A stretch of DNA of 32,000 bases from an uncultured bacterium (GTDB taxonomy: Bacteria; Patescibacteriota; Gracilibacteria; UBA1369; PNNO01). Below, piece by piece: positions 12,013 to 28,570 of the stretch. The stretch lies in NCBI GenBank assembly GCA_963704705.1, contig OY969931.1, forward strand, positions 1,170,001 to 1,202,000, written 5' to 3'. Each line of letters begins with the position of its first letter. Position 1 is the first letter of the stretch. The notes beneath the pieces were generated by a model that worked only from the letters and a program-made list of their open reading frames with translations, did not search any database and was not told the origin of the DNA. Both the position numbers and the translations under genes were made by a program.

Positions 12013-12408
12013 ATGTCCGAAACACCAAAATCAGAAGTTCCTGAAAAGGATTTTTCAACGGACAGGCTTGATGATACGCTGGCTGCGACTGATGCGATTA
12101 TATTAAGAATTAAAACAGCTTGTGATCTTGTTGTTAGAACTATGACAGCAATTGATGATACCAAAAAATTTCAAAATAGTTCCCTTCCAATAGTGAGGGA
12201 AGTTTATACATCGCAATTCAAAAAATTACTTGAACAATTAGAGGCAGATGAGATCAAAAAAGGAACAGTAAAAATAGAACTTATTAGAAAAATTGAAATT
12301 ATAAATGAAGCCATAAAATTGCATAAAGGTTCATTTTTCTTAAGAGACTTAAACAGGGCTTTAAGAATACTGAAAAAAGAGCTCGAAAGCCTTACAACGG
12401 ACTTTTAA
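12013..12408 (+). CDS. hypothetical protein (131 aa)
   Basis: ORF 10 nt downstream of ntpD. No motif recognised. Its 3' end overlaps the 3' end of the convergent recombinase gene by 17 nt. Confidence 0.45.
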   Translation: MSETPKSEVPEKDFSTDRLDDTLAATDAIILRIKTACDLVVRTMTAIDDTKKFQNSSLPIVREVYTSQFKKLLEQLEADEIKKGTVKIELIRKIEIINEAIKLHKGSFFLRDLNRALRILKKELESLTTDF

Positions 12409-13213
12409 TACTTTTTATAGCTTTTTGACGAACATGAGTATAAATTTGCGTTGTTCTTACACTAGCATGACCTAAAAGCTCCTGTACATACCTTAGGTTA
12501 GTTCCGCACTCAATCAAATGCGTTGCAAAACTATGCCGGAGCGAATGAAAAGTAGCCGGAATATCAACCTCAGCTTTTTTAAGTGCATTCTTAAAAACCT
12601 TCTGAACTGTTCGTGGATGTAACTTTCCTCCCCTATTACTCTCAAAAACATATTGGTACGGCTTTTTATCTTTCAAATAAAACTTGAGTCGATCCCAAAG
12701 CTTATCAGGTAAAATTGTAAAACGACTTTTGAATCCCTTGCCATTTTTGATATAAATCGTGTGATCATAAAAACGAACATCCCTGACCTTAAGGTCGATA
12801 AGCTCACTCAGCCTCAACCCCGCTCCATAAGCCAAAAGAATAATAAGTTTGTGCTTTTTATTGTTGGTGGAGTCTGCGATCAGAAGTACCATCGGCTTGG
12901 AAAGTGTTTTAGGCGTACTTTTTGGCCGCTTAGCATACGGAACCTTGATTTCTTTACGGCGTTTCATGACGTTAAAATAAAAAAATTTTATCGCACATAA
13001 ATACAAATTGCGCGAAACCGGCCCAACTCCCTCCTTAGCCTTCTCAAATAAAAATTGCTGCACCATTTGCTGGCTATAACGTCGTATTGCCTCCCCATCA
13101 AATTCCAAATACTTCTCGATGTTATACATGTACGTTTTGCGAGTCCTCGGACTATAATTGCGAATAACCAAGGCAAACTCCATCTCCTTTAGCATTTTAT
13201 TAATTTTTTTCAT
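12392..13213 (-). CDS. intI: Integron-integrase-like tyrosine recombinase (short form, 273 aa)
   Basis: Catalytic set present: R in AGLRLSE, K in GKGFKSR, HxxR in HSLRHSFAT, H in LLGHASV, Y in QIYTHV. N-terminus RNYSPRTRKTY and C-terminus IYTHVRQKAIKSIKSPL resemble IntI (IntI1 ends ...IYTHVLKVGGAGVRSPLD, from memory). It is divergent from the cassette array. Only 62 aa separate GKG from HSLRH, so the IntI-specific insertion seems to be missing. Confidence 0.8.
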   Translation of the reverse strand: MKKINKMLKEMEFALVIRNYSPRTRKTYMYNIEKYLEFDGEAIRRYSQQMVQQFLFEKAKEGVGPVSRNLYLCAIKFFYFNVMKRRKEIKVPYAKRPKSTPKTLSKPMVLLIADSTNNKKHKLIILLAYGAGLRLSELIDLKVRDVRFYDHTIYIKNGKGFKSRFTILPDKLWDRLKFYLKDKKPYQYVFESNRGGKLHPRTVQKVFKNALKKAEVDIPATFHSLRHSFATHLIECGTNLRYVQELLGHASVRTTQIYTHVRQKAIKSIKSPL

Positions 13214-13314
13214 AAAAATATGTTAAAAATATGCACGCAGCATATCCAAACATTATTAAATATTTCTAAAAAAAACCTAAAATATGCTAAAGTACGCTAA
13301 GTAGGGAGTTAGCG
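13214..13314 (+). other. attI-like region with recombination point G|TTAGCG at 13308|13309
   Basis: Identity with the copy of cassette 1 at 30993 begins exactly at GTTAGCG (13308-13314). Inverted boxes CGCTAA (13295-13300) and TTAGCG (13309-13314) are separated by 8 nt. Upstream direct repeats are AAAATATGTTAAA (13214) and AAAATATGCTAAA (13279), with a palindrome ATATGCacgcaGCATAT at 13229-13245. Confidence 0.7.
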
Positions 13315-13318
13315 GAAA

Positions 13319-13347
13319 TTGGGCTGATTTTAAAAGCGACTTAATAT
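13319..13347 (+). promoter_or_regulatory. cassette-borne promoter candidate (cassette 1; repeated in cassette 28)
   Basis: TTGGGC, 17-nt spacer, TAATAT. It lies inside the cassette, so it travels with it (same sequence at about 31004-31032). Confidence 0.35.
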
Positions 13348-13378
13348 ATAATTCAAATAATTCTTAACCTAAAATTCT

Positions 13379-13957
13379 ATGAATCAAACATGGAAAATCA
13401 TTGTCGCCGTCATTATTACAGCAGTCGTTGTCGGAGGTGGCTTTTACTTCTGGCAACAGAGCAAGGAAGAAACTCCACAAGTTACTCGAAAAACCGAAGA
13501 TCAAACACCAGCTCCAGCAGCTGAAACCGAAAAAACGTTCACTGGTAGCGGATTTACATTCACATACCCCGTAGAATATACAGCTGATAACAAAGGACTT
13601 TGGACAACGGACGGTTATCAAAGACATATAAATCCGCCTGAAGCTTGCGATACCTGCCAGATACCAGAAGTAGAAGTAAAAGCCACCACTTCAAATAAAA
13701 CATTGGATCAACAAATTATTGCTGATTATGACTTGCCAGGAACAACACTGGCAGAGATGTCTAAACAAACTGGCATCAAATATGAGCAAATAAAAATCGG
13801 CGACAATGATTTTATCAAAATCACGGTTAGCGACATGTTCGATGTAACAGGATATTACACAAAACATAATAATCAGATTGTCGCTTTTAAAGTTTATTTG
13901 ACGGAAAAAGATAATAAGGCATTAAAAGATATTATTTCGACTTTGAAGTTTAATTAA
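13379..13957 (+). CDS. cassette 1 (13309-14086): membrane-anchored hypothetical protein (192 aa)
   Basis: N-terminal TM helix IIVAVIITAVVVGGGFYFW followed by a Pro/Thr/Glu-rich linker. The protein is identical to the ORF at 31064-31642. Confidence 0.7.
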   Translation: MNQTWKIIVAVIITAVVVGGGFYFWQQSKEETPQVTRKTEDQTPAPAAETEKTFTGSGFTFTYPVEYTADNKGLWTTDGYQRHINPPEACDTCQIPEVEVKATTSNKTLDQQIIADYDLPGTTLAEMSKQTGIKYEQIKIGDNDFIKITVSDMFDVTGYYTKHNNQIVAFKVYLTEKDNKALKDIISTLKFN

Positions 13958-13972
13958 AATCAGCCCAACATC

Positions 13973-14092
13973 AGCTAACAAAGGCTATGCGGCTACGATC
14001 CTTTCAGTCGCTACGCCCATATTGTGCGGTGGTGAGCCACTTCGCGGCCAATTATACCACCGCACAACATCGCATAGCCTTGGCCGTTAGCC
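13973..14092 (+). repeat. attC 1
   Basis: R'' AGCTAAC, R' GTTAGCC. L arms aaggctatgcg/cgcatagcctt. Inner stem tgtgcggtgg/ccaccgcaca. ATTATACCACC core. Confidence 0.85.
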
Positions 14093-14109
14093 GCCATTTT
14101 CATTCCCAC

Positions 14110-14137
14110 TTGAATTTTTATCAGATTTATTTATAAT
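14110..14137 (+). promoter_or_regulatory. cassette-borne promoter candidate (cassette 2)
   Basis: TTGAAT (14110-14115), 16-nt spacer, TATAAT (14132-14137), 27 nt upstream of the ATG at 14165. Confidence 0.5.
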
Positions 14138-14164
14138 TTATCTCTTAATTTATAATAATAAATT

Positions 14165-14456
14165 ATGAATACACCTGAAGGATTTCCAGTTGAATTATGT
14201 CCACCACACTATATAGATCATCAATTAGATAATACTCATAGAGACATTTGGATTACAGATGTTAGTGAACAAATATACAGAAGATGGATATTTTGTTGAA
14301 AACTTTCCACCTGAAATAAATGAAAGAGTATTTCAAGTTCGTGATGGTGTATCACGGGCAACACAATTTAAGGTACGTACACATCCTGAGAGAATTTATC
14401 GTGCAACTGATAATCCACATAAAACAGGATGGTGGGAATGTAATGTAGATAAATAA
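14165..14456 (+). pseudogene. cassette 2 (14087-14579): possibly frameshifted small gene
   Basis: The ATG at 14165 opens a 45-codon frame (MNTPEGFPVELCPPHY...) that stops at about 14300. A second frame, open from 14229, carries the 65-aa track ORF (14259-14456). The frames overlap and share one upstream promoter, which is consistent with a single gene broken by a 1-nt indel. Two small genes is the alternative. Confidence 0.35.
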
Positions 14457-14463
14457 AAACAGC

Positions 14464-14585
14464 GGCTAACAGGTGTATGTTCAGCTTCACTCGCTATGCT
14501 CGTTACGCCCATATTTTTGCAAGTGATGGCGCTTCGCGCTATTATACCACTTGCAAAAACATAGTACATACACCGGCCGTTGTAC
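14464..14585 (+). repeat. attC 2
   Basis: R'' GGCTAAC, R' GTTGTAC. L arms ggtgtatgt/acatacacc. Inner stem tttttgcaagtg/cacttgcaaaaa. ATTATACCAC core. Confidence 0.85.
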
Positions 14586-14656
14586 GAAATAGCAATGAGT
14601 TCTATCTTTGTGTAAATTTTAAGAAGCACCACTTGACTAATTGGTGATATAGTTGT

Positions 14657-14980
14657 ATGTTATCCCCCATTCATAATCATAAAACTATGAATTTTGGTAG
14701 CTATCGAGCTCGCGTCGCTATAGTAAGAGATATTAGCGAGTTCAAAACAATCAAAGATAGTAATAGAGCAGACAAACTAAATCAAGCTTTAAACAAGGGA
14801 AAAAGCAAAGTTGAACAAGCAAAAACTGATGCAGATATTGAACAAGCATGTAAAGAAACTTTTGAAGAAGTATTAAGAGTTTTTGAAGGTAGTGATGAAC
14901 ATGATGGTATGCGGGGCTTTGTTTTAGTGGATAGATTTCAAAGCGACGCTCACAATTGGTGGAATAATTCAAAGAATTAA
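14657..14980 (+). CDS. cassette 3 (14580-15152): hypothetical protein (107 aa)
   Basis: Intact ORF. A paralog at 29288-29611 differs by one residue (S35R). The true start may be the internal ATG at 14687. Confidence 0.6.
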   Translation: MLSPIHNHKTMNFGSYRARVAIVRDISEFKTIKDSNRADKLNQALNKGKSKVEQAKTDADIEQACKETFEEVLRVFEGSDEHDGMRGFVLVDRFQSDAHNWWNNSKN

Positions 14981-15004
14981 TAGTTATAAGCTCATTGCTA
15001 CATC

Positions 15005-15158
15005 GTACAACAGGCGCATTAACGGTTCGGGCTTTTTCTTGCGGCTGGCTTCGCACAGCCAAAAATCCCTCTCCCAACTTTTTTAACGGTGCTTTCATGC
15101 CTTGCGGCATGTTATTATACCACCGTCAAAAAGTTCGCTAATGCGCCAGACGTTGCAC
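15005..15158 (+). repeat. attC 3 (long type A)
   Basis: R'' GTACAAC, R' GTTGCAC. L arms ggcgcatta/taatgcgcc. Inner stem ttttttaacggtg/caccgtcaaaaa. ATTATACCACC core. Confidence 0.85.
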
Positions 15159-15437
15159 GCAATTGCACACACTCAAAAAAAACCGTAAGTCAATTTCTCG
15201 ACTTTCGCTTTTTTTGCGCCTGCGGCGGTTGTGTGTGCAACAACGTACAACAAACGTATATTCAACTCTCTTCTCTCTCATGTTTCATTTTCTTTTAATC
15301 AATTAAATAACTTAATAAATAAAAATAAATTTCACTACAAATAACCCGTTCGTCCAAATTAGGCTTCTCTCGCCGCGGTGATTGGGATATTATATCACCG
15401 CTTCTCGTTCAGCCTAACTTTGTATATACGTTGGACG
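15153..15437 (+). repeat. cassette 4: ORF-less 285-bp cassette, copy 1 of 3
   Basis: It starts at G|TTGCAC and ends at ...ttggacG|TT. There is an 82-bp body with an A8/T7-8-containing hairpin (ttgcacacac...gtgtgtgcaa). An attC-like part then carries an AT-rich insertion of about 110 nt. Near-identical to 15948-16231 and 17986-18269. Confidence 0.8.
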
Positions 15438-15443
15438 TTATAC
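15235..15443 (+). repeat. attC 4 (within ORF-less cassette)
   Basis: R'' GTGCAAC (15235-41) matches the cassette start TTGCAC. A tandem second box GTACAAC lies at 15244-50. R' GTTATAC. Arms acgtatat/atatacgt. Inner stems ttaggct/agcctaa and cgcggtgat/atcaccgc. Confidence 0.6.
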
Positions 15444-15467
15444 GCCACAAGAAAAAGAATATTGCAA

Positions 15468-15497
15468 TTGACAAAATTGCTATATTTATATTAATAT
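15468..15497 (+). promoter_or_regulatory. cassette-borne promoter candidate (cassette 5)
   Basis: TTGACA (15468-73), 18-nt spacer, TAATAT (15492-97), 25 nt upstream of the ATG at 15523. Confidence 0.45.
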
Positions 15498-15522
15498 CTC
15501 TTTCCTATAACCAATCTATATT

Positions 15523-15936
15523 ATGAGAAGCAGAACACCTATTTGTGATAGGAACAAAAGAGAGCTTGCAATATGCAATGAAGCGCTTGATACAGGATCA
15601 TTTGGAGAATCTTTAATTAAATTAAAGCCATCGGAACTCGACTCGCTTCTAGATAACTTTCATCTTGCTATTACTTTATTTATGGATAGATTGGATTGTG
15701 AAAGGGCGATGAATTTAAAAACCGTAACGCTCGCGTCGGAACTGCATATAATGAATTATTGGAAGCTAAAAAAGGTAATTAACTCCTTTTTCTTGCAGCG
15801 CATAACAGGCGCATTAACGGTTCGGGCTTTTTTTGCGGCTGGCTTTCGCACACCCAAAAATCCCTCACCCAACTTTTTTAACGGTGGTTCCATGCCTTAC
15901 GGCATGATATTATACCACCGTCAAAAAGTTCGCTAA
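15523..15936 (+). CDS. cassette 5 (15438-15947): hypothetical protein; the ORF reads into its attC
   Basis: 137-aa ORF with no stop before the attC. The last 45 or so codons are translated attC sequence, and the stop TAA lies in the L' arm (gcTAAtgcgcc). Confidence 0.5.
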   Translation: MRSRTPICDRNKRELAICNEALDTGSFGESLIKLKPSELDSLLDNFHLAITLFMDRLDCERAMNLKTVTLASELHIMNYWKLKKVINSFFLQRITGALTVRAFFAAGFRTPKNPSPNFFNGGSMPYGMILYHRQKVR

Positions 15937-15953
15937 TGCGCCGGACGTTGCAC
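15800..15953 (+). repeat. attC 5 (type A)
   Basis: R'' GCATAAC, R' GTTGCAC. L arms ggcgcatta/taatgcgcc. ATTATACCACC core. Confidence 0.85.
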
Positions 15954-16231
15954 GCAATTGCACACACTCAAAAAAAACCGTAAGTCATTTCTCAACTTTC
16001 GCTTTTTTTTGCGCCTGCGGCGGTTGTGTGTGCAACAACGTACAACAAACGCATATTCAACTCTCTTCTCTTTCATGTTTCATTTTCTTTTAACCAATTA
16101 AATCACTTAATAAATAAAAATAAATTCACTACAAATAACCCGTTCGTCCAAATTAGGCTTCTCTCGCCGCGGTGATTGGGATATTATATCACCGCTTCTC
16201 GTTCAGCCTAACTTTGTATATGCGTTGGACG
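15948..16231 (+). repeat. cassette 6: ORF-less cassette, copy 2 of 3
   Basis: Same 284-bp unit as 15153-15437. Bounded by G|TTGCAC and ggacG|TT. Confidence 0.8.
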
Positions 16232-16237
16232 TTATGT
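16030..16237 (+). repeat. attC 6 (within ORF-less cassette)
   Basis: R'' GTGCAAC (16030-36), R' GTTATGT (16231-37). Same architecture as attC 4. Confidence 0.6.
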
Positions 16238-16342
16238 GTAATAGCGAAAAGAAAAATGTTGCACATTTTCAATATTTTTGGTAATTTACGTTTATAATTG
16301 CGCACAACCTCATCTAATTCATTATCTTATTAGAAATCAGTT

Positions 16343-16609
16343 ATGAGAGATACAATAAGCGGTTCAAACGAACCTAAACCAGAAAAACCTCCTCTTCATT
16401 CATTGGAACAGTGGGAGTTGTCTAACAGAATTTCGCATGAAACGGGCTGTAATAGTGAACAATTGAAGTGGATCGAAGATCGAATGAATGAATTAAATGT
16501 GGGTGAAAGTTTTGAATGGACCTCAGAAACACAACAAGTGATCACAATTACAAAGGTAGAAGAAAAATTTTACAAGTTAGACTTTCCTCAAAATTACAAA
16601 CGATCGTAA
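16343..16609 (+). CDS. cassette 7 (16232-16794): hypothetical protein (88 aa)
   Basis: Intact ORF followed by a terminator-like hairpin. No motif recognised. Confidence 0.55.
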   Translation: MRDTISGSNEPKPEKPPLHSLEQWELSNRISHETGCNSEQLKWIEDRMNELNVGESFEWTSETQQVITITKVEEKFYKLDFPQNYKRS

Positions 16610-16630
16610 ACGCAAATTACCAAAAATATA

Positions 16631-16660
16631 CGACCGCCTTTAAGGGGCGGTCGTTGCTTT
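16631..16660 (+). terminator. rho-independent terminator candidate inside cassette 7
   Basis: 8-bp GC-rich stem cgaccgcc/ggcggtcg with a 7-nt loop, followed by TTGCTTT. It lies 22 nt after the ORF stop. Confidence 0.5.
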
Positions 16661-16670
16661 ACGCTACTAC

Positions 16671-16800
16671 GCATAACACTGGACATGCGGTTCGGGTTAT
16701 CCCCGAAAGACCTTATGCAAATTGAAAAACCCCGCTCTTTTTGATAAAATTGATTAAGGAAGGGGGGTTTTTCAACTTCGCATGTCCAGGAACGTTATGT
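16671..16800 (+). repeat. attC 7 (divergent type)
   Basis: R'' GCATAAC, R' GTTATGT. L arms ctggacatgcg/cgcatgtccag. Inner stem gaaaaacccc/ggggtttttc. It lacks the ATTATACC core. Confidence 0.8.
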
Positions 16801-16912
16801 GAAATAGCCAGAAATTTCTTAATTATTTTTTAGATTTTTTTGGCAATTTATTTCAACGGTCGACATAACTTATGATATAATTTAGTCAGTTTAATATTTA
16901 ACCAAAATAACT

Positions 16913-17161
16913 ATGGAATCACCAGAACAAGGGTTTAACCCACAAGAACATACACGCTGGGCAAAACAGCGGGCACTTGAACTATTAGAAAACGGAGATC
17001 TTATGCAGGCAATTGACTCAATGGTAAGTGATTTAGGTAAAGATCCTACGCGCCCGCCTGAACAAGTGAGAATGCTTACTATGATGGGCATGATTACAAG
17101 AAATGATCCCGCATTAGATGAAAAGAAAGTACGCGAGTTTATTGAAGGGTTTGCTGAATAA
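16913..17161 (+). CDS. cassette 8 (16795-17399): hypothetical protein (82 aa)
   Basis: Intact ORF. No motif recognised. Confidence 0.55.
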   Translation: MESPEQGFNPQEHTRWAKQRALELLENGDLMQAIDSMVSDLGKDPTRPPEQVRMLTMMGMITRNDPALDEKKVREFIEGFAE

Positions 17162-17204
17162 ATTGCCAAAAAAAGAATAAGGAATAGAAATTTCTGGCTA
17201 CATC

Positions 17205-17405
17205 ACATAACAGCGTGTATCTGGCTACGGAAAATTGGCGTTAATTAAACCCTTAAGGAATGCTAATTTTCCTCCGCCCAAATCCCGCACTAATTTTTGT
17301 GGGTTTTGGATGGAGAGCGTGTATAAAAGTGTTCGTAATAATTTTTAACATTATCTTTTACCAACAAAATTAGTGCGGGACTTCAGATACACGCAAACGT
17401 TAGCC
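17205..17405 (+). repeat. attC 8 (201 bp, divergent type)
   Basis: R'' ACATAAC, R' GTTAGCC. L arms gcgtgtatctg/cagatacacgc. Inner stem cccgcactaatttt/aaaattagtgcggg. Confidence 0.8.
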
Positions 17406-17490
17406 GCCATTCAATATTAGTTATGTATTTGTTATTTATGGCTTTTTGTTGTATAATATATACGTATTATATAATTAACAACTTATATAT

Positions 17491-17835
17491 ATGAATCCTT
17501 TAGAATCCTCTTTTTATGAAGAAGAACACAGTGAAATCGATAATTTAAATAAAGCAATTGAAGATAGTTTGGCAACAACAGTAATTGAAGCTGCTCAAAA
17601 CAGGTCACCTGAAGAAGCTAGAAAAGTGTTTAAAGCGAGCTTAGTTATTAATAGGATTTTTAATAATGTATTATTTGATGCTCGCGCAGATGGAACATCT
17701 GTATCAGATTTACCGACTTTACAGGGTATGATTGATGATTATGTTGCAAAACTTAATTTTGATTCATCGATATTAAGTAATTCTGTTGAAAAATTTCATA
17801 AATTAGCTGTTGAACTAGCTAAAGAAGAAATGTAA
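17491..17835 (+). CDS. cassette 9 (17400-17985): hypothetical protein (114 aa)
   Basis: Intact ORF preceded by an AT-rich leader containing TATAAT (ttgttgTATAATat). No motif recognised. Confidence 0.55.
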   Translation: MNPLESSFYEEEHSEIDNLNKAIEDSLATTVIEAAQNRSPEEARKVFKASLVINRIFNNVLFDARADGTSVSDLPTLQGMIDDYVAKLNFDSSILSNSVEKFHKLAVELAKEEM

Positions 17836-17843
17836 TAGAAAGC

Positions 17844-17991
17844 GGCTAACAGGCGCATATAAGGTTCACTTCGCTTCGCTCGCTCACCCAAAAAAGCTAC
17901 ACTCGTCTCGGTGGTGAGCACGCTTATAAGCGTGACATTTTACCACCTCGTCTCGTTTCGCATTTCTTCTTATATACGCCGGACGTTGCAC
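17844..17991 (+). repeat. attC 9
   Basis: R'' GGCTAAC, R' GTTGCAC. L arms ggcgcatataag/cttatatacgcc (1 mismatch). Apical palindrome cacgcttataagcgtg. Confidence 0.8.
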
Positions 17992-18269
17992 GCAATTGCA
18001 CACACTCAAAAAAAACCGTAAGTCATTTCTCGACTTTCGCTTTTTTTTGCGCCTGCGGCGGTTGTGTGTGCAACAACGTACAACAAACGCATATTCAACT
18101 CTCTTCTCTTTCATGTTTCATTTTCTTTTAACCAATTAAATCACTTAATAAATAAAAATAAATTCACTACAAATAACCCGTTCGTCTAAATTAGGCTTCT
18201 CTCGCCGCGGTGATTGGGATATTATATCACCGCTTCTCGTTCAGCCTAACTTTGTATATGCGTTGGACG
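17986..18269 (+). repeat. cassette 10: ORF-less cassette, copy 3 of 3
   Basis: Same 284-bp unit as 15948-16231. Bounded by G|TTGCAC and ggacG|TT. Confidence 0.8.
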
Positions 18270-18275
18270 TTGTAT
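18068..18275 (+). repeat. attC 10 (within ORF-less cassette)
   Basis: R'' GTGCAAC (18068-74), R' GTTGTAT (18269-75). Same architecture as attC 4. Confidence 0.6.
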
Positions 18276-18309
18276 GATATAATCAAATAAATTCTTTAAC
18301 ATTGTAAAC

Positions 18310-18777
18310 ATGAAAAAGTTTGTACTGGGACTAACAGTTGGAATAATCGTTGCAATTGCGCCAGCAGTTTATGCAATGATCGTTCCTCCGGTAAATTTTA
18401 CTGATGTCAGCCAAAACGATTGGTATTATACTCCCGTAACACAATTGGCTACCATGGGTATTATTAATGGTTATTCCGATGGATCGTTTAAACCTACAAA
18501 TTCAATCAACAGGGCTGAAACTGCTAAACTTATTTATGCACTTTATGAGCAACTTAACGATAGTAGCAAAGTGGCGGATTTAGAAAATAGAATTGAAATT
18601 TTAGAGACTCAGATGAGCACATTAAGTTTACCGGGAGACTGCTATTATAATAATACTTGGTATTCAACCGGGGATACGGTTCCACAGGATAATGTTTGCG
18701 AAACAGATGTTTGTGGTCCTGGGTCTTGTACATGTCAAGATGATGGAAGTCTTGCGCAATGTGCAATAACCTACTAA
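18310..18777 (+). CDS. cassette 11 (18270-18923): secreted/anchored SLH-domain protein (155 aa)
   Basis: N-terminal signal/TM segment. FTDVSQNDWYYTPVTQLATMGIINGYSDGSFKPTNSINRAETAKLI fits the S-layer-homology consensus. A short coiled coil and a Cys-rich C-terminus follow. Confidence 0.65.
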   Translation: MKKFVLGLTVGIIVAIAPAVYAMIVPPVNFTDVSQNDWYYTPVTQLATMGIINGYSDGSFKPTNSINRAETAKLIYALYEQLNDSSKVADLENRIEILETQMSTLSLPGDCYYNNTWYSTGDTVPQDNVCETDVCGPGSCTCQDDGSLAQCAITY

Positions 18778-18796
18778 AAGCTAATTTGATTACATC

Positions 18797-18929
18797 ACAC
18801 AACAGCTGATTATGCGGTTCCACTCGCCTATCGGCTCGTTTCACCCAACTTTTCAAACGGTGGTTGCACGTCTGGCGACGTGATATTATACCACCGTCAA
18901 AAAGTTCGCATAGTCAGCGGACGTTAGGC
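18797..18929 (+). repeat. attC 11
   Basis: R'' ACACAAC, R' GTTAGGC. L arms gctgattatgcg/cgcatagtcagc (1 mismatch). Inner stem ttttcaaacggtgg/ccaccgtcaaaaa. ATTATACCACC core. Confidence 0.85.
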
Positions 18930-19015
18930 GATATTATTTTATTAAGGTATTTAATGTCTACAAGCTTTACAAGATAATTATTTTATGTATAATTATTTCC
19001 TTTAATAAATATATT

Positions 19016-19225
19016 ATGACTCGACCTAAATTAGATAAAGATCCAAAACTAAAAAGAAGTGAAAGGCTAACTGCTTTTATTGATGAAGAAAGTATGAAAA
19101 GGATTCAATGGGCAGCATTCGTTACAAAGAAATCTATTGGAGAAGTTCTTGGTGATTTGATTATGAAGAATATAAAAGAACCGCCAAAGGAAATAGATGA
19201 AGATCCATTTTTACATGAAGAATAA
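19016..19225 (+). CDS. cassette 12 (18924-19369): small RHH/CopG-like protein (69 aa), tentative
   Basis: The pattern RSERLTAFIDEESMKRIQWAAFVTKKSIGEVLGDLI looks like a beta-strand/helix/helix ribbon-helix-helix layout. Judged by eye only. Confidence 0.4.
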   Translation: MTRPKLDKDPKLKRSERLTAFIDEESMKRIQWAAFVTKKSIGEVLGDLIMKNIKEPPKEIDEDPFLHEE

Positions 19226-19229
19226 CATC

Positions 19230-19375
19230 GCCTAACAGCAAACTATCCGGTTCAGCCTTTTTTGATGCGCGGCTTTGCACGCGCAAAAGGCTTCACCCAA
19301 CTTTTTTTGCAATGGTGGCGCTGACGCGCTATTATACCATCGCAAAAAAGTTCGTATAGTTTGCGGCCGTTGTGT
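19230..19375 (+). repeat. attC 12 (type B)
   Basis: R'' GCCTAAC, R' GTTGTGT. L arms gcaaactat/atagtttgc. Inner stem ctttttttgcaatgg/ccatcgcaaaaaag. ATTATACCATC core. Confidence 0.85.
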
Positions 19376-19409
19376 GAAATAAATCTGTCGCCACTTAATC
19401 TAAAAATAT

Positions 19410-19850
19410 ATGGCTAAAGAAGACAAAGAACATTGCATATTCTGCAAAATCATCGCCGGCAAATCACCGGTAAGTATAGTATACGAAGATGATAGAGTTA
19501 TAGTATTCCCTCCACTTCAACCAGTAAACAAAGGCCATCTGCTCGTAATTCCTAAAAAACATGCACCTTATTTAGCCGATATTGATGAAGATACAGCTAT
19601 GTACGTCATGAAAATTGCAAAAAAAATTGCAGCAGGAATAAGAAAATCTAAATTTAAAAGTGAAGGAGTGAATCTGTTCCTCGCAGATGGCGAAGCTGCA
19701 CACCAAGAAGTCTTCCATCTACACCTACATGTTTATCCAAGATATGCCGGCGATGATTTTGACTTCAAATATGATTTAGAAAAACACTTTGTTAAAATGC
19801 AACGCTCTGAGTTAGATGAGGTAGCAAAAGAAATAAAAGATCATTTATAA
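19410..19850 (+). CDS. cassette 13 (19370-19991): HIT-family nucleotide hydrolase/transferase
   Basis: 146 aa. CIFCKII N-terminus and histidine triad HLHLHVYP. Confidence 0.9.
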   Translation: MAKEDKEHCIFCKIIAGKSPVSIVYEDDRVIVFPPLQPVNKGHLLVIPKKHAPYLADIDEDTAMYVMKIAKKIAAGIRKSKFKSEGVNLFLADGEAAHQEVFHLHLHVYPRYAGDDFDFKYDLEKHFVKMQRSELDEVAKEIKDHL

Positions 19851-19873
19851 AAGATTGGCTCCAGATTTACATC

Positions 19874-19997
19874 ACACAACAGCAAACTATCCGGTTCAGC
19901 TCCTTAAAGTCGCTTCACCCAACTTTTTTTGCAACGGTGGCGCTGACGCGCTATTATACCATCGCAAAAAAGTTCGTATAGTTTGCGGACGTTAGAC
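19874..19997 (+). repeat. attC 13 (type B)
   Basis: R'' ACACAAC, R' GTTAGAC. L arms gcaaactat/atagtttgc. ATTATACCATC core. Confidence 0.85.
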
Positions 19998-20015
19998 GCC
20001 ATTGGGCTTTTTCTT

Positions 20016-20693
20016 TTAAGCGGCTTTCGACAAGGCTTGAAGGACTTTTTGCGAATCTGTTACCCAACCAAAAATCCCACCTTGGGCTTTTATAATTTCT
20101 AAAGCAGAACGGTGGCGATCTTCGTCATAAGCCGCCATACAATCCGCGAGGACAATTGCATTAAATCCACGGTCATTTGCCCCAGAAACCGTAGTTGAAC
20201 AACAAACATCAGTGGTCACACCAGCCACGAGTAAATTTATAATACCCCGCTCTTTCAAAACTGCCTCTAAGTCAGTCTTGTAAAAAGCGTTTTTGCCTGG
20301 TTTATCAATTACAAGTTCATCAGGCAACGGGGCGACTTCATCAATAATTCCGTGACCTTCTTCACCTCGAATTAAAATTCGTCCCATTGGTCCTTGATCT
20401 CCAATACGTCGCCCTTCTGGCCATCGAGTCAGTTTTGTTGCGGGGCAATCACTCAAGTCGGGCAAATGACCTTCTCTTGTATGGATTATAAGCATAGCTC
20501 TTTCTCGAAAAGCTCGAATTATCTTCTGAATTGGTGCAATTGTCCTCGCTAACAAATCAACATCATTTCCCAAGGACTCACCGTATCCACCATGTCGCAA
20601 AAAGTCCTTCTGCATATCAATCACGATCAAAGCAGTTTCCTCGAGTTTTACGTCGATAGGAGTAGGTTCTGCTTGTATGTTTACATTAGTCAT
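20016..20693 (-). CDS. cassette 14 (19992-20906): isochorismatase-family cysteine hydrolase (amidohydrolase), reverse orientation
   Basis: 225 aa. ALIVIDMQKDF (Asp), DKPGKNAF (Lys) and VAGVTTDVCC (Cys) give the catalytic-triad pattern. It is on the opposite strand to the array. A candidate own promoter on the minus strand is TTGCGC-N17-TATAGT at about 20715-20743. Confidence 0.85.
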   Translation of the reverse strand: MTNVNIQAEPTPIDVKLEETALIVIDMQKDFLRHGGYGESLGNDVDLLARTIAPIQKIIRAFRERAMLIIHTREGHLPDLSDCPATKLTRWPEGRRIGDQGPMGRILIRGEEGHGIIDEVAPLPDELVIDKPGKNAFYKTDLEAVLKERGIINLLVAGVTTDVCCSTTVSGANDRGFNAIVLADCMAAYDEDRHRSALEIIKAQGGIFGWVTDSQKVLQALSKAA

Positions 20694-20774
20694 AAGCCAC
20701 TTAATTAAAAAGAGGGCGAACTATAACATAGAAAAAGAAAAAGCGCAACCAGCTTTCGCTTCGCTTCAGCTGGC

Positions 20775-20912
20775 GCCTAACACGGCATGTGCGGTTCGGG
20801 CTTCTTTTCGGCTGGCTACGCACAGCCTCAAAGCCCTCACCCATATTTGCCACTGCTACCGCTGCGCGATATTATAGCAGTGGCAAACATCGCACATGCC
20901 GGAACGTTATGT
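20775..20912 (+). repeat. attC 14
   Basis: R'' GCCTAAC, R' GTTATGT. L arms cggcatgtgcg/cgcacatgccg. Inner stem tttgccactgct/agcagtggcaaa. ATTATAGCAG core variant. Confidence 0.85.
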
Positions 20913-20945
20913 GACATCCATTTTTTCTTATTGTAGAATAACGAC

Positions 20946-21514
20946 ATGGAAAAAGAACCAATTACACCGATTGAAATAGTAAAAGCAGATATTAAACTTT
21001 TTGAAAAATATCAAAAAGAAATTTTGGAAATCGAAAGAGAACTTATCGAAAATAGTTCATCAGCATATCTTATTGATGAACAAGATGAGCTCGATTTTAT
21101 GTTAGATGCGTTTAAAAAAGGAGGTTATGCTTATTTAGTAATGGAAAATGAAAAAGTTACTGGGTTTTTAGTTGTTGGGCCACTCGATGATGGGACTGAA
21201 TTGCCTGAAACAGATACTCAAAATTATCCAATTGCAAATTGCCTTCATATCAAAGTAATGTACATAAAAAATACAAGCAAAGGAATTGGTAGTGAAATGA
21301 TGGAAAAATTAATTCAAGAACTAGATAAAGAACAATGGAAATATTTATTTGTAAGAACTTGGATTGATCCACCAAATGAAGGAGCATTAATTTTTATACA
21401 AATCGAGCTGGCTTTGAAGCTGTTCCAAATGCAATAGTTGAATCAACAAAAAGAAAATTGAATGGAAGTGGAACACTCCAAATAAAAAGACAATATTTTT
21501 CAAAAAGGATATAG
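20946..21514 (+). pseudogene. cassette 15 (20907-21678): frameshifted GNAT acetyltransferase
   Basis: Same gene as 30259-30828, but gaaggagcATTAATT replaces gaaggagcTATTAATT (1-nt deletion near 21388). The frame changes just before the AINFYTNRAGF motif and gives a 163-aa truncated product. Confidence 0.8.
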
Positions 21515-21528
21515 AAAAAATGGACATC

Positions 21529-21684
21529 ACATAACAGGCGCATTAACGGTTCGGGTTTTTTTTGTCGGGCGGCCTAAAGCACGCCCAAAAATCCCTCACC
21601 CAACTTTTTTAACGGTGGTGACATGCCTTGCGGCATGTTATTATGCCACCGTCAAAAAGTTCGCTAATGCGCCGGACGTTAGGC
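21529..21684 (+). repeat. attC 15 (type A)
   Basis: R'' ACATAAC, R' GTTAGGC. L arms ggcgcatta/taatgcgcc. ATTATGCCACC core. Confidence 0.85.
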
Positions 21685-21706
21685 GGCATCTCTTAATCAA
21701 TCTATT

Positions 21707-21928
21707 ATGAAATTATATACAAAAATATTGTTAGCATTATTTATTGGAATAGTTCTCACCTTACTTTCAATATCATATAAATCATCTTATGAATTTCATG
21801 TACTTGAATACAGTAGTTATGAAACACGACCTTCCTGGGGATTCCCTTTGCAGTATGTATACGATAATGATGTTAGCTCACCAGTAATGTCAATGAATAA
21901 GAAGATACATTCATTTTTACATATATGA
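21707..21928 (+). CDS. cassette 16 (21679-22108): small membrane protein (73 aa), followed by an overlapping 25-aa TM ORF
   Basis: N-terminal TM helix ILLALFIGIVLTLLSI. A second ORF (21925-22002, MIGDVLIYSFLAFIPFLIFKKRDTA) starts in an ATGA stop/start overlap and stops inside R''. This is either a coupled pair or one frameshifted gene. Confidence 0.5.
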   Translation: MKLYTKILLALFIGIVLTLLSISYKSSYEFHVLEYSSYETRPSWGFPLQYVYDNDVSSPVMSMNKKIHSFLHI

Positions 21929-21996
21929 TTGGGGATGTATTAATTTACTCATTTTTGGCTTTCATACCATTTTTAATATTTAAAAAAAGAGACACC

Positions 21997-22114
21997 GCCT
22001 AACAGCAAACTATCCGGTTCCGCTCCTTGCAGTCGCTACACCCAACTTTGCCAGTGGTGGCGCTTCGCGCTATTATACCACTGTCAAAGTTCGTATAGTT
22101 TGCGGACGTTGTGC
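21997..22114 (+). repeat. attC 16 (type B)
   Basis: R'' GCCTAAC, R' GTTGTGC. L arms gcaaactat/atagtttgc. ATTATACCACT core. Confidence 0.85.
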
Positions 22115-22208
22115 GCCATTTTCGTTATTCTTTTGTTAATTATTTTACCCTTGACGCGGCAGACGTATTATGCTTTTATTAACTCCTTAATTCTTAATAT
22201 AATTAATT

Positions 22209-22548
22209 ATGAAGATTACTGAGAATTGGTCTGATGGGCACCATGAAACTGAAAAAGGAGAAGTCATGACATATAATTTTAATATACGAATTGTATAGTC
22301 TGCACCGTCAAGTATAGGACAAATAAAAAAGCGTGAAAGTAATTTGGTTGTTCAACAATGCGAATTACGACAAGCAATCTCCGAAGGTAGACTTGATGAT
22401 GCTTTAACAATTGGAACTAATGTTGAAGACGCTTTTGCAAAAAGATAGAAAGAAACCTGAGTGTAATGCGTTTAATCATCTAAAAGTATTACGAGCAGGT
22501 ATACGGGGAAAAATAGAGCAACTAAAAACCGAAGAAAGAACTATTTAG
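22209..22548 (+). pseudogene. cassette 17 (22109-22690): decayed gene, no intact ORF
   Basis: The ATG at 22209 opens a frame interrupted by two in-frame TAG codons (codon 30 and about codon 78). Coding-like sequence then continues in another frame to TAG at 22546. No ORF of 60 aa or more in any frame. Confidence 0.4.
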
Positions 22549-22572
22549 CTATCAAAAAATAACGAAAACTGC

Positions 22573-22696
22573 GCACAACAGCAAACTATCCGGTTCAGCT
22601 CCCTTCGCTCGCTTCACCCAACTTTTTTTGCAATGGTCGCGCTATCGCGCTATTATACCATCGCAAAAAAGTTCGTATAGTTTGCAGACGTTAGGC
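22573..22696 (+). repeat. attC 17 (type B)
   Basis: R'' GCACAAC, R' GTTAGGC. L arms gcaaactat/atagtttgc. ATTATACCATC core. Confidence 0.85.
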
Positions 22697-22734
22697 GAAA
22701 TGGCGACAACTAACAACAACATTTAAGATAATTT

Positions 22735-23229
22735 ATGACAATTTTTTTCGACATCCATCAAAACAAAGTTGAATTACCCCCGAATGAAAAAATTTTTTGG
22801 CGTATTTCTTCATACACAATCGTAGAACACAAAGGTAAAATTTTGGTTCTCAAACCACAATATGACACAAGTAAGTGGATTCTTCCTGGAGGTGGCATCG
22901 AAACAAATGAATCCATTGCTCAAGGGATAGAGAGAGAGTGCTATGAAGAAACTGGCTACAAAATCAAAGTCGATGCCACTCATCCTATTCACGTAGGAGA
23001 ATCAAACCTTTACCTAGAAAATGAGAAAAAATTTTTTCATTCTCTCAACTTCATATATGAAGCAAAACTATTAAGTGAAGACCAAAATAAAAAAATGATC
23101 AATTCAATAGAAACCGAAGAAGTAGAAAAAGTAGATTGGATTCCATTAGAAGAAATAAATGAAAAAAATTGTCACCACATCATGTATCCAGCAATTGAAA
23201 ATTATAAAAAGTGTCGCCACATCGCCTAA
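22735..23229 (+). CDS. cassette 18 (22691-23337): Nudix hydrolase
   Basis: 164 aa. Nudix box GGGIETNESIAQGIERECYEETGY fits GX5EX7REUXEEXGU. The stop TAA lies inside R'' (GCCTAAC). Confidence 0.9.
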   Translation: MTIFFDIHQNKVELPPNEKIFWRISSYTIVEHKGKILVLKPQYDTSKWILPGGGIETNESIAQGIERECYEETGYKIKVDATHPIHVGESNLYLENEKKFFHSLNFIYEAKLLSEDQNKKMINSIETEEVEKVDWIPLEEINEKNCHHIMYPAIENYKKCRHIA

Positions 23230-23343
23230 CACAGAATATGCGGTTTCGCTCCCGTTGGTCGCTACACCCATATTTGCTGGTGGTGGCTCACTTCGTTCGC
23301 TATTATACCACCAGCAAACATCGCATATTCTGGAACGTTGTGT
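23224..23343 (+). repeat. attC 18
   Basis: R'' GCCTAAC, R' GTTGTGT. L arms cagaatatgcg/cgcatattctg. Inner stem tttgctggtgg/ccaccagcaaa. ATTATACCACC core. Confidence 0.85.
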
Positions 23344-23377
23344 GAAATAAATCTGTCGCCACTTAATCTAAAAATAT

Positions 23378-23818
23378 ATGGCTAAAGAAGACAAAGAACA
23401 TTGCATATTCTGCAAAATCATCGCCGGCAAATCACCGGTAAGTATAGTATACGAAGATGATAGAGTTATAGTATTCCCTCCACTTCAACCAGTAAACAAA
23501 GGCCATCTGCTCGTAATTCCTAAAAAACATGCACCTTATTTAGCCGATATTGATGAAGATACAGCTATGTACGTCATGAAAATTGCAAAAAAAATTGCAG
23601 CAGGAATAAGAAAATCTAAATTTAAAAGTGAAGGAGTGAATCTGTTCCTCGCAGATGGCGAAGCTGCACACCAAGAAGTCTTCCATCTACACCTACATGT
23701 TTATCCAAGATATGCCGGCGATGATTTTGACTTCAAATATGATTTAGAAAAACACTTTGTTAAAATGCAACGCTCTGAGTTAGATGAGGTAGCAAAAGAA
23801 ATAAAAGATCATTTATAA
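23378..23818 (+). CDS. cassette 19 (23338-23959): HIT-family hydrolase, duplicate of cassette 13
   Basis: Protein identical to 19410-19850. Both cassettes are 622 bp, and the only difference I saw is one base in the attC (caaCggtgg vs caaTggtgg). Confidence 0.9.
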   Translation: MAKEDKEHCIFCKIIAGKSPVSIVYEDDRVIVFPPLQPVNKGHLLVIPKKHAPYLADIDEDTAMYVMKIAKKIAAGIRKSKFKSEGVNLFLADGEAAHQEVFHLHLHVYPRYAGDDFDFKYDLEKHFVKMQRSELDEVAKEIKDHL

Positions 23819-23841
23819 AAGATTGGCTCCAGATTTACATC

Positions 23842-23965
23842 ACACAACAGCAAACTATCCGGTTCAGCTCCTTAAAGTCGCTTCACCCAACTTTTTTTGC
23901 AATGGTGGCGCTGACGCGCTATTATACCATCGCAAAAAAGTTCGTATAGTTTGCGGACGTTGTAC
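23842..23965 (+). repeat. attC 19 (type B)
   Basis: R'' ACACAAC, R' GTTGTAC. Otherwise as attC 13. Confidence 0.85.
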
Positions 23966-24027
23966 GCCATATTTTTTTGTGCTAGTATCATATCTTATTA
24001 AATTGAATCCAACTAATAACTATACAA

Positions 24028-24369
24028 ATGAAATTAAGAAGCAATCCAAAGGGAGATCCGGAGCTGCCTATGCCTTACATCGAAGGGCTGACAGTTGATG
24101 AGGCAATTCCAGTTATTATTGCTGTGCTAGAAAAAATTGATAACCGAGATGAGCCAGTAATTTATGGCATGCAAGGTATTAACACCGTCAACCAACTTAT
24201 AAAAGCAATCCGAACTAAATCACCACAAGGACTAGAAATGCTCTCTCTCTGGAGACGCGCTGAAGCTCGTATAAAAGAGCGAGAAGGTCAAAAAGATGGC
24301 AGCCCTTCGTTCCTTAGCGAATTAAGGAATAAATTAGGAGATGCTCTAAAAAAAATAACAGGCAGATAA
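24028..24369 (+). CDS. cassette 20 (23960-24551): hypothetical protein (113 aa)
   Basis: Intact ORF. No motif recognised. Confidence 0.55.
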   Translation: MKLRSNPKGDPELPMPYIEGLTVDEAIPVIIAVLEKIDNRDEPVIYGMQGINTVNQLIKAIRTKSPQGLEMLSLWRRAEARIKEREGQKDGSPSFLSELRNKLGDALKKITGR

Positions 24370-24405
24370 AAGCACAAAAAATACACTCTCACTTCGTTCG
24401 TTGGC

Positions 24406-24557
24406 GTACAACAGGCGCATTAACGGTTCGGCTTTTTTTGCGGCTGGCTTCGCACAGCCAAAAATCCCTCACCCAACTTTTTTAACGGTGGTGGCATGTC
24501 TGGCGACATGATATTATACCACCGTCAAAAAGTTCGTTAATGCGCCGGACGTTAGGC
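24406..24557 (+). repeat. attC 20 (type A)
   Basis: R'' GTACAAC, R' GTTAGGC. L arms ggcgcatta/ttaatgcgcc. ATTATACCACC core. Confidence 0.85.
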
Positions 24558-24560
24558 GAC

Positions 24561-24660
24561 ATATTTTTGAAAAATTTGATTTTAAAATGTTTTTGGTGAG
24601 CTTTAAGAAATAAGGAATTTGATTTTTTTAATTTTTAAAGAGGGGGGGGGGTAAAAGGTG
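24561..24660. repeat. IR-L of the RM module (G-rich copy, contains G10 at 24642-24651)
   Basis: tatttttgaaaaattt...gtttttggtgagcttt...gaatttgattttttt...aaagaggggggggggt is an imperfect inverted copy of 27098-27204. The core motif AATTTGATTTTT...AGAGGGG is shared with 27787-27825 and 28571-28625. Confidence 0.7.
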
Positions 24661-24694
24661 TTTTCTCCGCTATCGCTCCAAAAACGAATTTTAA

Positions 24695-24723
24695 TTGGAA
24701 AAAAGCAAAAAGTTTTATATACT
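24695..24723 (+). promoter_or_regulatory. promoter candidate for the RM gene
   Basis: TTGGAA (24695-700), 17-nt spacer, TATACT (24718-23). RBS AAAGAGG lies 5 nt before the ATG at 24755. Confidence 0.45.
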
Positions 24724-24754
24724 TAAATTAGTTTTAACTTATTAAAGAGGTAAT

Positions 24755-27082: not shown

Positions 27083-27097
27083 GGAGTTTTGAAAAAT

Positions 27098-27204
27098 GGA
27101 ATTCACCCCCAGCCCCTCTTCCATTTTTCAAAACAAAAAAATCAAATACAATAATAAAAAGCCCACCAAAAACGGAATAATATGGATAAATTTTTCAAAA
27201 ATAC
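27098..27204. repeat. IR-R of the RM module (C-rich copy)
   Basis: The reverse complement reads gtatttttgaaaaattt...gtttttggtgggcttt...gtatttgattttttt...gaagaggggctgggggtgaattcc, matching 24561-24660 block by block. Confidence 0.7.
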
Positions 27205-27249
27205 GCAAGGCACGTTGCACTCTCACTCCGCTATCGCTCCGTTCGGCTC

Positions 27250-27347
27250 GCCTAACACAGTATATGCGGTTCGCTCGTTGCACTTCGCTCTCCCATATTT
27301 TGCTCCGTTTCACTCCGCAAAACATCGCATATACTGAAACGTTGTAG
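27250..27347 (+). repeat. attC 21 (short, 98 bp)
   Basis: R'' GCCTAAC, R' GTTGTAG. L arms cagtatatgcg/cgcatatactg. Short apical stem ttttgc/gcaaaa. It lacks the ATTATACC core. Confidence 0.8.
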
Positions 27348-27394
27348 AAAGCCACTTTTCCTATAAACTAATGATCTAATAATTAACTAATAAA

Positions 27395-27571
27395 ATGATG
27401 CCAAAAATCGAAACTTATTCAGATAATGAAGGAAACTCAATTACTATTGAAGAAGGGCCTGATGGCGTAAATGTTTCTGCAAGCATAAAAACAAAACCAC
27501 CATACTCAGGTGGAGCAAATGCTTCAGCTGCTAGAAGTTACGCTCAAAAAAATGGGCTCAAAAAAGAATAA
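27395..27571 (+). CDS. cassette 22 (27342-27731): small hypothetical protein (58 aa; below the ORF-track cutoff)
   Basis: ATG at 27395 and TAA at 27569-71. It translates as MMPKIETYSDNEGNSITIEEGPDGVNVSASIKTKPPYSGGANASAARSYAQKNGLKKE and is the only plausible ORF in the cassette. Confidence 0.45.
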   Translation: MMPKIETYSDNEGNSITIEEGPDGVNVSASIKTKPPYSGGANASAARSYAQKNGLKKE

Positions 27572-27585
27572 TAAAAGTGGCCATC

Positions 27586-27737: not shown

Positions 27738-27744
27738 GAAATAC

Positions 27745-28474: not shown

Positions 28475-28502
28475 AACGAAAATATTTTAATAATGGAATA
28501 AT

Positions 28503-28530: not shown

Positions 28531-28570
28531 TATACTGTGCAACTTTTATTTCTAAGGTGTTTAGGCTCGG

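Follow-up and report, generated by a model that had tools for sequence, protein, structure and literature searches.

A short IntI-like recombinase without the IntI-specific inserts as the probable integrase of a cassette array in Patescibacteria

Can a tyrosine recombinase that lacks the additional domain of integron integrases serve a cassette array as its integrase? The question is raised by a 32,000-nt stretch (the window; contig OY969931.1, positions 1,170,001 to 1,202,000) from an uncultured member of the Patescibacteria, or candidate phyla radiation (CPR), in which the gene for a 273-aa recombinase stands beside a long array of attC-like sites. Messier & Roy (2001) reported the additional domain to be necessary for activity, and IntegronFinder uses it as a defining filter; in the published view, recombinases near attC without a match to intI_Cterm "are not IntI". 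Our analysis of the sequence points, with a probability of about 0.78, to a functional integrase of a sedentary chromosomal integron, belonging to a CPR-wide clade of insertion-less proteins of ~270 aa. Taken by itself, the statement that this protein serves the array as its own integrase, and that the IntI domain is truly missing from it, is probable. Both its logic and its layout make the element an integron, and it departs from the definition of one in two features, having neither the IntI domain nor the canonical extrahelical bases.

The recombinase gene and its missing inserts

Open reading frame (ORF) analysis revealed a complete 273-aa ORF with an ATG start (Table 1). The product matched Phage_integrase (PF00589, 1e-40) and Phage_int_SAM_4 in Pfam, its N-terminus matching PF13495. 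We aligned the protein to IntI1 (reference sequence from plasmid NZ_MT192131.1), and R134, K159, H223, R226, H249 and Y258 corresponded to R146, K171, H277, R280, H303 and Y312 of IntI1. These six catalytic residues were invariant across 21 family members. Exactly 62 residues separated GKG (158-160) from H223 of HSLRHSFAT, and the same span was 104 in IntI1. The original prediction, made from the letters alone, had described a 273-aa ORF with a full RKHRHY set and a GKG-to-HSLRHSFAT distance of 62 residues against about 100 in IntI1, and both statements were confirmed. It had also called the two termini IntI-like, which agrees with the PF13495 match and with the C-terminal S271/P272, found in at least 80% of the CPR family and of IntIs and in 0/4 of the Xer proteins compared.

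The inserts were then sought by several comparisons. BLASTP against IntI1 opened gaps over a 24-residue stretch of IntI1 and over 'THSTDPRSGVVRR'. A phmmer search against the VchIntIA chain (2a3v) divided the match into two segments (query 12-210 with chain 11-213, and query 198-273 with chain 242-317), skipping chain residues ~214-241 between them. We also aligned the protein by MAFFT with 33 representatives of IntI (mutually <50% identical, from an exhaustive representative search); both inserts were present in 33/33 IntIs and absent from the window protein, 20 homologues, XerA, XerC and XerD. An ad hoc hidden Markov model (HMM) of the insertion, built from IntIs, scored 49-105 bits for 13 held-out IntIs and 0.5 bits for the window protein. 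The missing inserts are the I2 alpha-helix, or ALERKYP segment, and the hairpin extension that follows it, and their absence is complete; the reported lack of the ALERKYP segment was thus upheld by the gaps, the split match, the alignment and the HMM alike. Unlike canonical IntIs of 320-340 aa, the CPR integrase is without an I2/ALERKYP insert of ~32 residues and a hairpin extension of ~12 residues.

The insertion HMM was also run over all six frames of 11.9-13.7 kb, where nothing scored above 0 bits and no remnant appeared. A frameshift, a truncation or a gene-model error, named at the outset as a way in which a longer protein might be hidden, is therefore ruled out. The window protein aligned over 100% of its length to relatives of 259-295 aa and covered positions 6-261 of the 263 in the XerA profile. 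An AlphaFold (AF2) model from a 21-sequence alignment was compact, with a predicted local distance difference test (pLDDT) score of 90, and showed, after the beta-hairpin, one helix and short strands that lead straight into the helix before H223. Foldseek searches with this model returned VchIntIA 2a3v (2.6e-15) and XerA (3.7e-15) as about equal top matches.

The cassette array, attI and the attC-like sites

A structure-agnostic pattern (AAC, 1 nt, 10-bp stem ... stem, 4 nt, GTT) detected 28 true sites in the window, on the plus strand only, from 13973 to 31775. A covariance model (R1), built from an alignment of 21 of the 28 sites, likewise found 28 sites in the window, all between 13969 and 31779, with 0 left of the integrase and 0 on the other strand (Table 1). 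The array probably continues beyond the window end. Together, attI and the 28 attC-bounded cassettes bear out the divergent placement beside an active-looking array that the original prediction had described.

The cassette boundaries were examined in the window. R'' complemented the GTT-proximal 5' end of its own cassette, with 12 mismatches in total vs 67 for R''/R' pairs of the same site, and 0/10000 permutations were as good. This complementarity reached ~14 nt, which accounts for the "extended boxes" noted originally. Nine cassette pairs were 91-99.8% identical and stood in different flanks, their identity running from G|TT to the next GTT. Cassettes 1 and 28 form one such pair, the copy at attI being 99.5% identical to the other; the identity begins exactly at 13308, and the attI crossover lies between 13308 and 13309. 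The boundary at attI, the self-complementary cassette ends and the duplicated cassettes point to integron-type recombination. Indirect evidence that cassettes may be excised and integrated in dependence on the integrase comes from the nine duplicated pairs, which are bounded by GTT and one of which involves attI.

The attI alignment (A3) comprised the window and six related genomes (L001, L004, L005, L011, L012 and L013; L numbers denote loci). The 95 nt from the start codon to 13308 were conserved in all six, and each showed its own R' remainder past the G of GTT. Related cores read TTCGCATAA-N6-AG|TT in distant loci and TTCGCATAA-N6-AG|TTATGTGAAAT in many loci. A palindrome, ATATGCACGCAGCATAT, between the integrase start and the attI core is a possible operator or accessory site, comparable to the LexA box of classical integrons. 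A promoter scan of the attI region gave scores no better than those of shuffled sequence.

The attC-like sites were compared within and beyond the window. In the 21-site window alignment, AACA and CGTT were invariant and the L stem showed heavy compensatory change. The cores read RYYYAAC / GTTRKRY, with invariant AAC and GTT and an R box consensus of GTTRKRY. For 109 sites from 40 non-window loci, 93.7% of the modelled pairs were paired vs 33-42% in slid controls, and the covariation score was 0.569 vs at most 0.095 in controls, with 543 double-sided changes; 9/12 pairs of the L stem changed on both sides. These attC-like sites conserve structure, not sequence.

Single-strand folds consisted of an R stem, a 3-nt bulge, an L stem and a three-way junction. 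The bulge lies on the R'-L' arm, directly beside the cleavage site; a single A follows AAC vs four bases (R-R-A-C) before GTT, and this asymmetry is conserved. On the R''-L'' arm, a side branch of 25-75 nt with conserved CGGTTC and CACCC motifs gives rise to the three-way junction. Extrahelical bases were described by Bouvier 2009 as single bases on the R''-L'' arm (PMC2727003). No canonical single extrahelical base was found in the L stem of the CPR sites, and the spacer is paired except for the 3-nt R'-L' bulge. This bulge-and-branch architecture, with the ~14-nt complementarity, substantiates the unusual attC that had been predicted.

The cassette ORFs are small accessory genes (HIT, isochorismatase, GNAT, NUDIX and an SLH protein), and a 775-aa N6 DNA methylase (24755-27082) lies inside the 2790-nt cassette. 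An Rfam gathering scan and a tRNA scan of the window returned 0 matches, so the array repeats are neither a known RNA family nor tRNA-linked. Three cassette copies of 284-285 nt (15152-15436, 15947-16230 and 17985-18268; 97-99% identical) consist almost wholly of an AT-rich attC of ~198 nt and leave no room for a gene; they are ORF-less cassettes, or possibly small-RNA or promoter cassettes.

Table 1. Coordinates of the integrase gene, attI, the cassette array and its attC-like sites in the window
Feature	Position	Strand	Remarks
Integrase gene	12392..13213	-	273-aa tyrosine recombinase, CPR "short IntI-like" family, without both IntI-specific inserts
attI region	13214..13307	+	integrase start codon to crossover; conserved in relatives
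Palindrome	13229..13245	.	perfect (ATATGC-ACGCA-GCATAT); between integrase start and attI core; conserved in relatives
attI core "simple site"	13295..13314	+	L arm CGCTAAG 13295-13301, spacer TAGGGA, R box G|TTAGCG 13308-13314
Cassette array	13308..31768	+	28 cassettes, 284-2790 nt, one orientation, each G|TT-bounded and ending in an attC-like site
attC 1	13973..14092	+	91.6 bits; DNA fold z = -5.8
attC 2	14464..14585	+	108.2 bits
attC 3	15005..15158	+	111.2 bits
attC 4	15245..15443	+	63.1 bits; long AT-rich type, cassette only 285 nt
attC 5	15800..15953	+	119.9 bits; outside training alignment
attC 6	16040..16237	+	65.2 bits; long type; outside training alignment
attC 7	16671..16800	+	63.3 bits
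attC 8	17205..17405	+	61.3 bits
attC 9	17844..17991	+	79.6 bits
attC 10	18078..18275	+	64.1 bits; long type; outside training alignment
attC 11	18797..18929	+	116.7 bits
attC 12	19230..19375	+	126.2 bits
attC 13	19874..19997	+	122.9 bits; folded
attC 14	20775..20912	+	102.3 bits
attC 15	21529..21684	+	121.1 bits
attC 16	21997..22114	+	117.7 bits
attC 17	22573..22696	+	124.9 bits
attC 18	23224..23343	+	107.8 bits; folded
attC 19	23842..23965	+	128.2 bits; outside training alignment
attC 20	24406..24557	+	117.1 bits
attC 21	27250..27347	+	59.5 bits; shortest (98 nt), ends 2790-nt methylase cassette
attC 22	27586..27737	+	123.0 bits
attC 23	28672..28793	+	114.4 bits; folded
attC 24	29105..29216	+	87.5 bits
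attC 25	29635..29788	+	112.1 bits; outside training alignment
attC 26	30083..30225	+	120.0 bits
attC 27	30843..30999	+	119.8 bits; outside training alignment
attC 28	31658..31775	+	96.4 bits; outside training alignment

The recombinase family across the CPR

Thousands of homologues of ~270 aa from Patescibacteria are annotated as XerD or as "site-specific tyrosine recombinase/integron integrase". Homologues with 64-79% identity, likewise placed at a V/A-type ATPase operon, were accompanied by syntenic arrays of the same site family with wholly different cassettes, and homologues with 45-50% identity, in unrelated chromosomal contexts, had divergent upstream arrays too. In the window, a complete V/A-type ATPase operon (I, c, E, C, F, A, B, D; 3604-12002, plus strand) adjoins the integrase. 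The same synteny was seen in L001, L004 and L005, whose integrases are 64-76% identical, indicating that the integron holds a fixed chromosomal position in its sub-lineage. A 131-aa ORF (12013-12408, plus strand; DUF7670 in relatives) runs towards the integrase gene, with 17 nt of overlap at the 3' end of that gene, and an ORF of this type is kept beside the integrase in L001-L003.

We scanned GTDB species representatives and obtained 80 loci (L011-L090) spanning Saccharibacteria, WWE3, Dojka-, Portnoy-, Berkel-, Nomura-, Uhr-, Magasanik-, Kerfeld-, Moran-, Peregrini- and Wolfebacteria. With R1 at E <= 1e-3, 112/112 sites lay upstream of the integrase on the divergent strand and 0 were found in 539 kb downstream. 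Upstream sequence of 1 kb or more was available for 46 loci, and 38/46 of them had an attC match. Weak upstream matches on the divergent strand were detected in L008, L089 and L017, which had no strong match; L008 and L089, read directly, each contained attI, one cassette and a weak attC. What the original prediction could see as one odd gene is thus a family found across the CPR radiation.

Contigs ended less than 1 kb upstream of the integrase in 34/80 loci and less than 1 kb downstream in 5/80. Such one-sided breaks are the usual effect of repeat arrays on assemblies. CPR metagenome-assembled genomes (MAGs) therefore lose these arrays systematically, and their accessory gene content is likely under-estimated.

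Two other candidates were rejected. A chance neighbourhood of a Xer gene and an attC-site cluster that has no integron integrase (CALIN) was ruled out by the one-side, one-strand placement of the 112 matches in the 80 loci. The best plasmid match, from Pontibacter (40% identity), was unrelated; it is 484 aa long, lies in the setting of a conjugative plasmid and has no array beside it.

Array members of other loci included a diversity-generating retroelement (DGR) pair (bAvd and an RVT_1 reverse transcriptase) within the cassette region of L001 (7564-8842). In L009 (3696-9728), a HaeIII-type restriction enzyme with a C5 methylase, a ThsB-like TIR protein and a Fic protein occurred as cassettes or array members. 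A CPR-type integrase with an array was also present in MAGs that are labelled otherwise, as Gammaproteobacteria, Pseudomonadales, Bdellovibrionales, Actinomycetota or Margulisiibacteriota (L016, L018, L024, L027, L063, L070, L073 and L074), which probably reflects mis-binning or mislabelling.

Relationship to IntI and Xer, and rival explanations

Like canonical integrons (IntI1, VchIntIA), the CPR elements have a divergent integrase beside attI, and small cassettes, mostly promoterless, that are arrayed in one direction. Their attC are imperfect palindromes with RYYYAAC...GTTRRRY-like cores, a C before GTT and a G|TT crossover; each cassette has its own complementary R''/R' remainder, structure is conserved while sequence varies, and cassettes are duplicated and reshuffled, including at attI. 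The enzyme shares the SAM_4 N-terminal domain, the RKHRHY set and a C-terminal S-P-L tail with canonical IntI. Unlike canonical attC, the CPR sites carry the 3-nt R'-L' bulge, a large R''-L'' branch and an R box of up to ~14 bp. The hosts also differ, having genomes of the ~1 Mb class, and very small genomes of this class have been reported to be without integrons (PMC4889954).

A neighbor-joining (NJ) tree was built with insertion columns trimmed and 200 bootstraps, using IntIs at least about 45% identical to IntI1 and XerA Pab, XerA Tac, XerC and XerD as outgroup. The CPR proteins and the IntIs were each monophyletic (100%), with the CPR proteins outside the sampled IntI clade, and the split of {CPR+IntI} from the four Xer proteins was recovered in 200/200 bootstraps. 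Six conserved columns, including the C-terminal S-P, were common to CPR and IntI only, and one to CPR and Xer only. An IntI C-terminal HMM scored 106-131 bits for CPR proteins, 103 for XerA and 79-85 for XerC/D. The window protein scored 185.5 bits in two stretches with the TIGR02249 integron-integrase model (cutoff 265) and 117 bits with NF011946 (cutoff 435), below the cutoff in both cases. These comparisons suggest that the CPR family is likely a lineage sister to IntI in which the insertion was never present, a status that is provisional given the few outgroups, the limited IntIs and the equal distances reported next.

Several observations count against the integron reading. The top curated profile was NF040815 (recomb_XerA_Arch), with 200.9 bits, under its own cutoff of 220. 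The mean pairwise distance from CPR to IntI equals that from CPR to XerA (1.39), and the NJ tree has only four outgroup sequences and limited IntI diversity. The 21 of 28 window sites that trained R1 match it by construction, the matches in other loci being independent. In favour of the integron reading, neither an IntI-insertion signal nor a second tyrosine recombinase was found in the 1.07 Mb of CPR loci that the scan covered. Recombination activity, the reactive strand and the roles of bulge and branch are all matters that we infer.

The original prediction had left two readings. That of a minimal integron-integrase lineage reading attC differently is favoured by the tree, the shared columns, the G|TT crossover and the attI beside the gene. 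That of a Xer-like recombinase recruited independently is less favoured; the XerA profile speaks for it and the grouping with IntI against it, on a tree with four outgroups.

Among the rival explanations, the one that survives best, although we consider it unlikely, is a housekeeping Xer, a single-recombinase dimer resolvase like XerA, XerS or XerH. In that case attI would be dif, the cassettes would be hitchhikers resembling integrative mobile elements exploiting Xer (IMEX) or pdif modules, and the array would be a by-product. The protein resembles XerA and other single-recombinase Xer proteins (P. abyssi XerA 4a8e, T. acidophilum 5hxy; XerS, XerH) in size, domain layout, absence of the insertion and a dif-like core beside the gene, and recomb_XerA_Arch and XerA 4a8e were its top NCBIfam and PDB sequence matches. 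The dif site of E. coli, GGTGCGCATAA-TGTATA-TTATGTTAAAT, has arms similar to the attI core TTCGCATAA-N6-AG|TTATGTGAAAT. The family is also very widespread in CPR.

Literature on short recombinases can be read in the same direction. Smyshlyaev, Bateman & Barabas 2021 described a "Cand" subgroup of simple tyrosine recombinases, Xer-related and class-specific, which they suggested to replace Xer, and reported no cassette arrays (PMC8138268). By taxonomy and Xer-relatedness these short recombinases of candidate phyla stand alongside the CPR family, which probably is the "Cand" subgroup. XerCD, moreover, can recombine the folded single-stranded site of CTX phage without an I2-like domain (PMC4792948).

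Chromosomal position speaks against the housekeeping role. The sign of the GC skew was unchanged across the locus in five small-array loci, namely L089 (+0.13/+0.11), L017 (-0.11/-0.12), L047, L077 and L009. These loci therefore lie off the skew switch, where dif sites lie, which disfavours attI as dif. Chromosomal context varies among lineages; gene-orientation patterns around the locus were inconsistent among lineages and were not used as evidence. Unlike Xer systems, which have one dif at the replication terminus and no cassettes, the CPR gene has beside it as many as 28 or more cassettes bounded by attC, and the protein falls with IntI, apart from XerA/C/D, by its C-terminal SPL motif and in the tree. 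The sites show attC-type architecture and covariation and are not dif copies. CTX-phi resembles the CPR system in having an I2-less recombinase act on a folded single-stranded site, and Acinetobacter pdif modules in having repeated Xer-type sites that bound gene modules. Unlike the CPR loci, however, CTX-phi, IMEX and pdif elements hijack a host enzyme encoded elsewhere through dif-mimicking sites and have no long one-way covarying attC arrays beside a dedicated recombinase and attI. A housekeeping Xer role and an integron role are compatible with each other.

A second rival, which we judge quite improbable, holds that the attC-like sites are recombined as double-stranded cores by two-strand exchange, so that the hairpin would reflect paired inverted binding sites only. 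I2 is missing from the enzyme; in IntI this segment is linked with recognition of single-stranded attC and with the block of second-strand exchange, and IntIs themselves keep double-strand x double-strand activity (PMC4792948). The R''/L'' and L'/R' pairs each look like simple sites with a centre of 6-9 nt. However, the L-stem sequence is free to vary and yet its arms stay complementary, a pattern (543 compensatory cells, 9/12 pairs two-sided) that fixed half-site binding does not predict, and the strand-asymmetric bulge and the branch exist only in the folded strand.

A decayed or mis-modelled canonical intI beside a relic CALIN moved in trans by another integrase, as IntegronFinder logic would label the array, is effectively refuted by the absence of an insertion trace in any frame, the ~270-aa length of thousands of homologues with catalytic residues invariant in 21 family members, the confident and compact AF2 model, the family-wide association with arrays, the 99.5%-identical cassette copy at attI and the lack of another recombinase in the 1.07 Mb of loci.

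The integron reading allows a mechanism to be proposed, which we hold with lower confidence. Two integrase monomers would bind a folded single-stranded attC at its R and L boxes, as in canonical integrons. One strand would be exchanged with double-stranded attI at G|TT, and replication would resolve the junction. Strand choice and the block of second-strand exchange would not come from I2 contacts with single extrahelical bases; they might come from the 3-nt bulge, formed by RRA before C-GTT on the top strand opposite the single A after AAC. The side branch of the R''-L'' arm, with its three-way junction, may supply a second asymmetry.

Searches of the open-access full-text literature yielded no description of CPR integrons whose integrases are insertion-less, although an earlier report is possible. 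Archaeal integrons (Ghaly et al. 2022, PMC9668308) likewise widen the host range beyond classical bacteria and were found in MAGs, but unlike the CPR family their IntIs keep the IntI-specific additional domain and canonical attC folding. According to Escudero et al., recombination of single-stranded attC became possible once I2 had been acquired; they regarded I2 with extrahelical bases as a co-evolved innovation that poses a chicken-and-egg paradox (PMC4792948). The CPR family bears directly on I2 as that enabling innovation. It offers a natural test of the need for I2 in structure-specific recombination and points to an alternative structural code for strand selection in the form of bulge and branch.

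A further, tentative idea, against which the odds lean somewhat, is that the CPR elements represent the pre-I2 state of integrons, in which attC cassettes and capture at attI arose with a plain Xer-like recombinase. I2 and single extrahelical bases would then be a later refinement on the branch to classical IntIs; in a stronger version, the same enzyme would double as the Xer of its lineage. If true, the idea would offer a way out of the chicken-and-egg paradox that the co-evolution of I2 and attC poses, and integrons would be an ancient, near-universal feature of Patescibacteria.

For a major part of bacterial diversity, integrons escape the standard searches, which would call such arrays CALINs or miss them. 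The cassettes seen include restriction-modification, TIR, Fic and DGR genes. The findings suggest that cassette capture is a main way in which ultra-small symbiotic bacteria acquire genes.

Among the canonical IntI cluster representatives, many proteins (P0252, P0266, P0276-P0278 and others) were 400-517 aa long. These long representatives carried ~100-170 residues N-terminal of the IntI match, which may reflect mis-called starts or a real extra domain.

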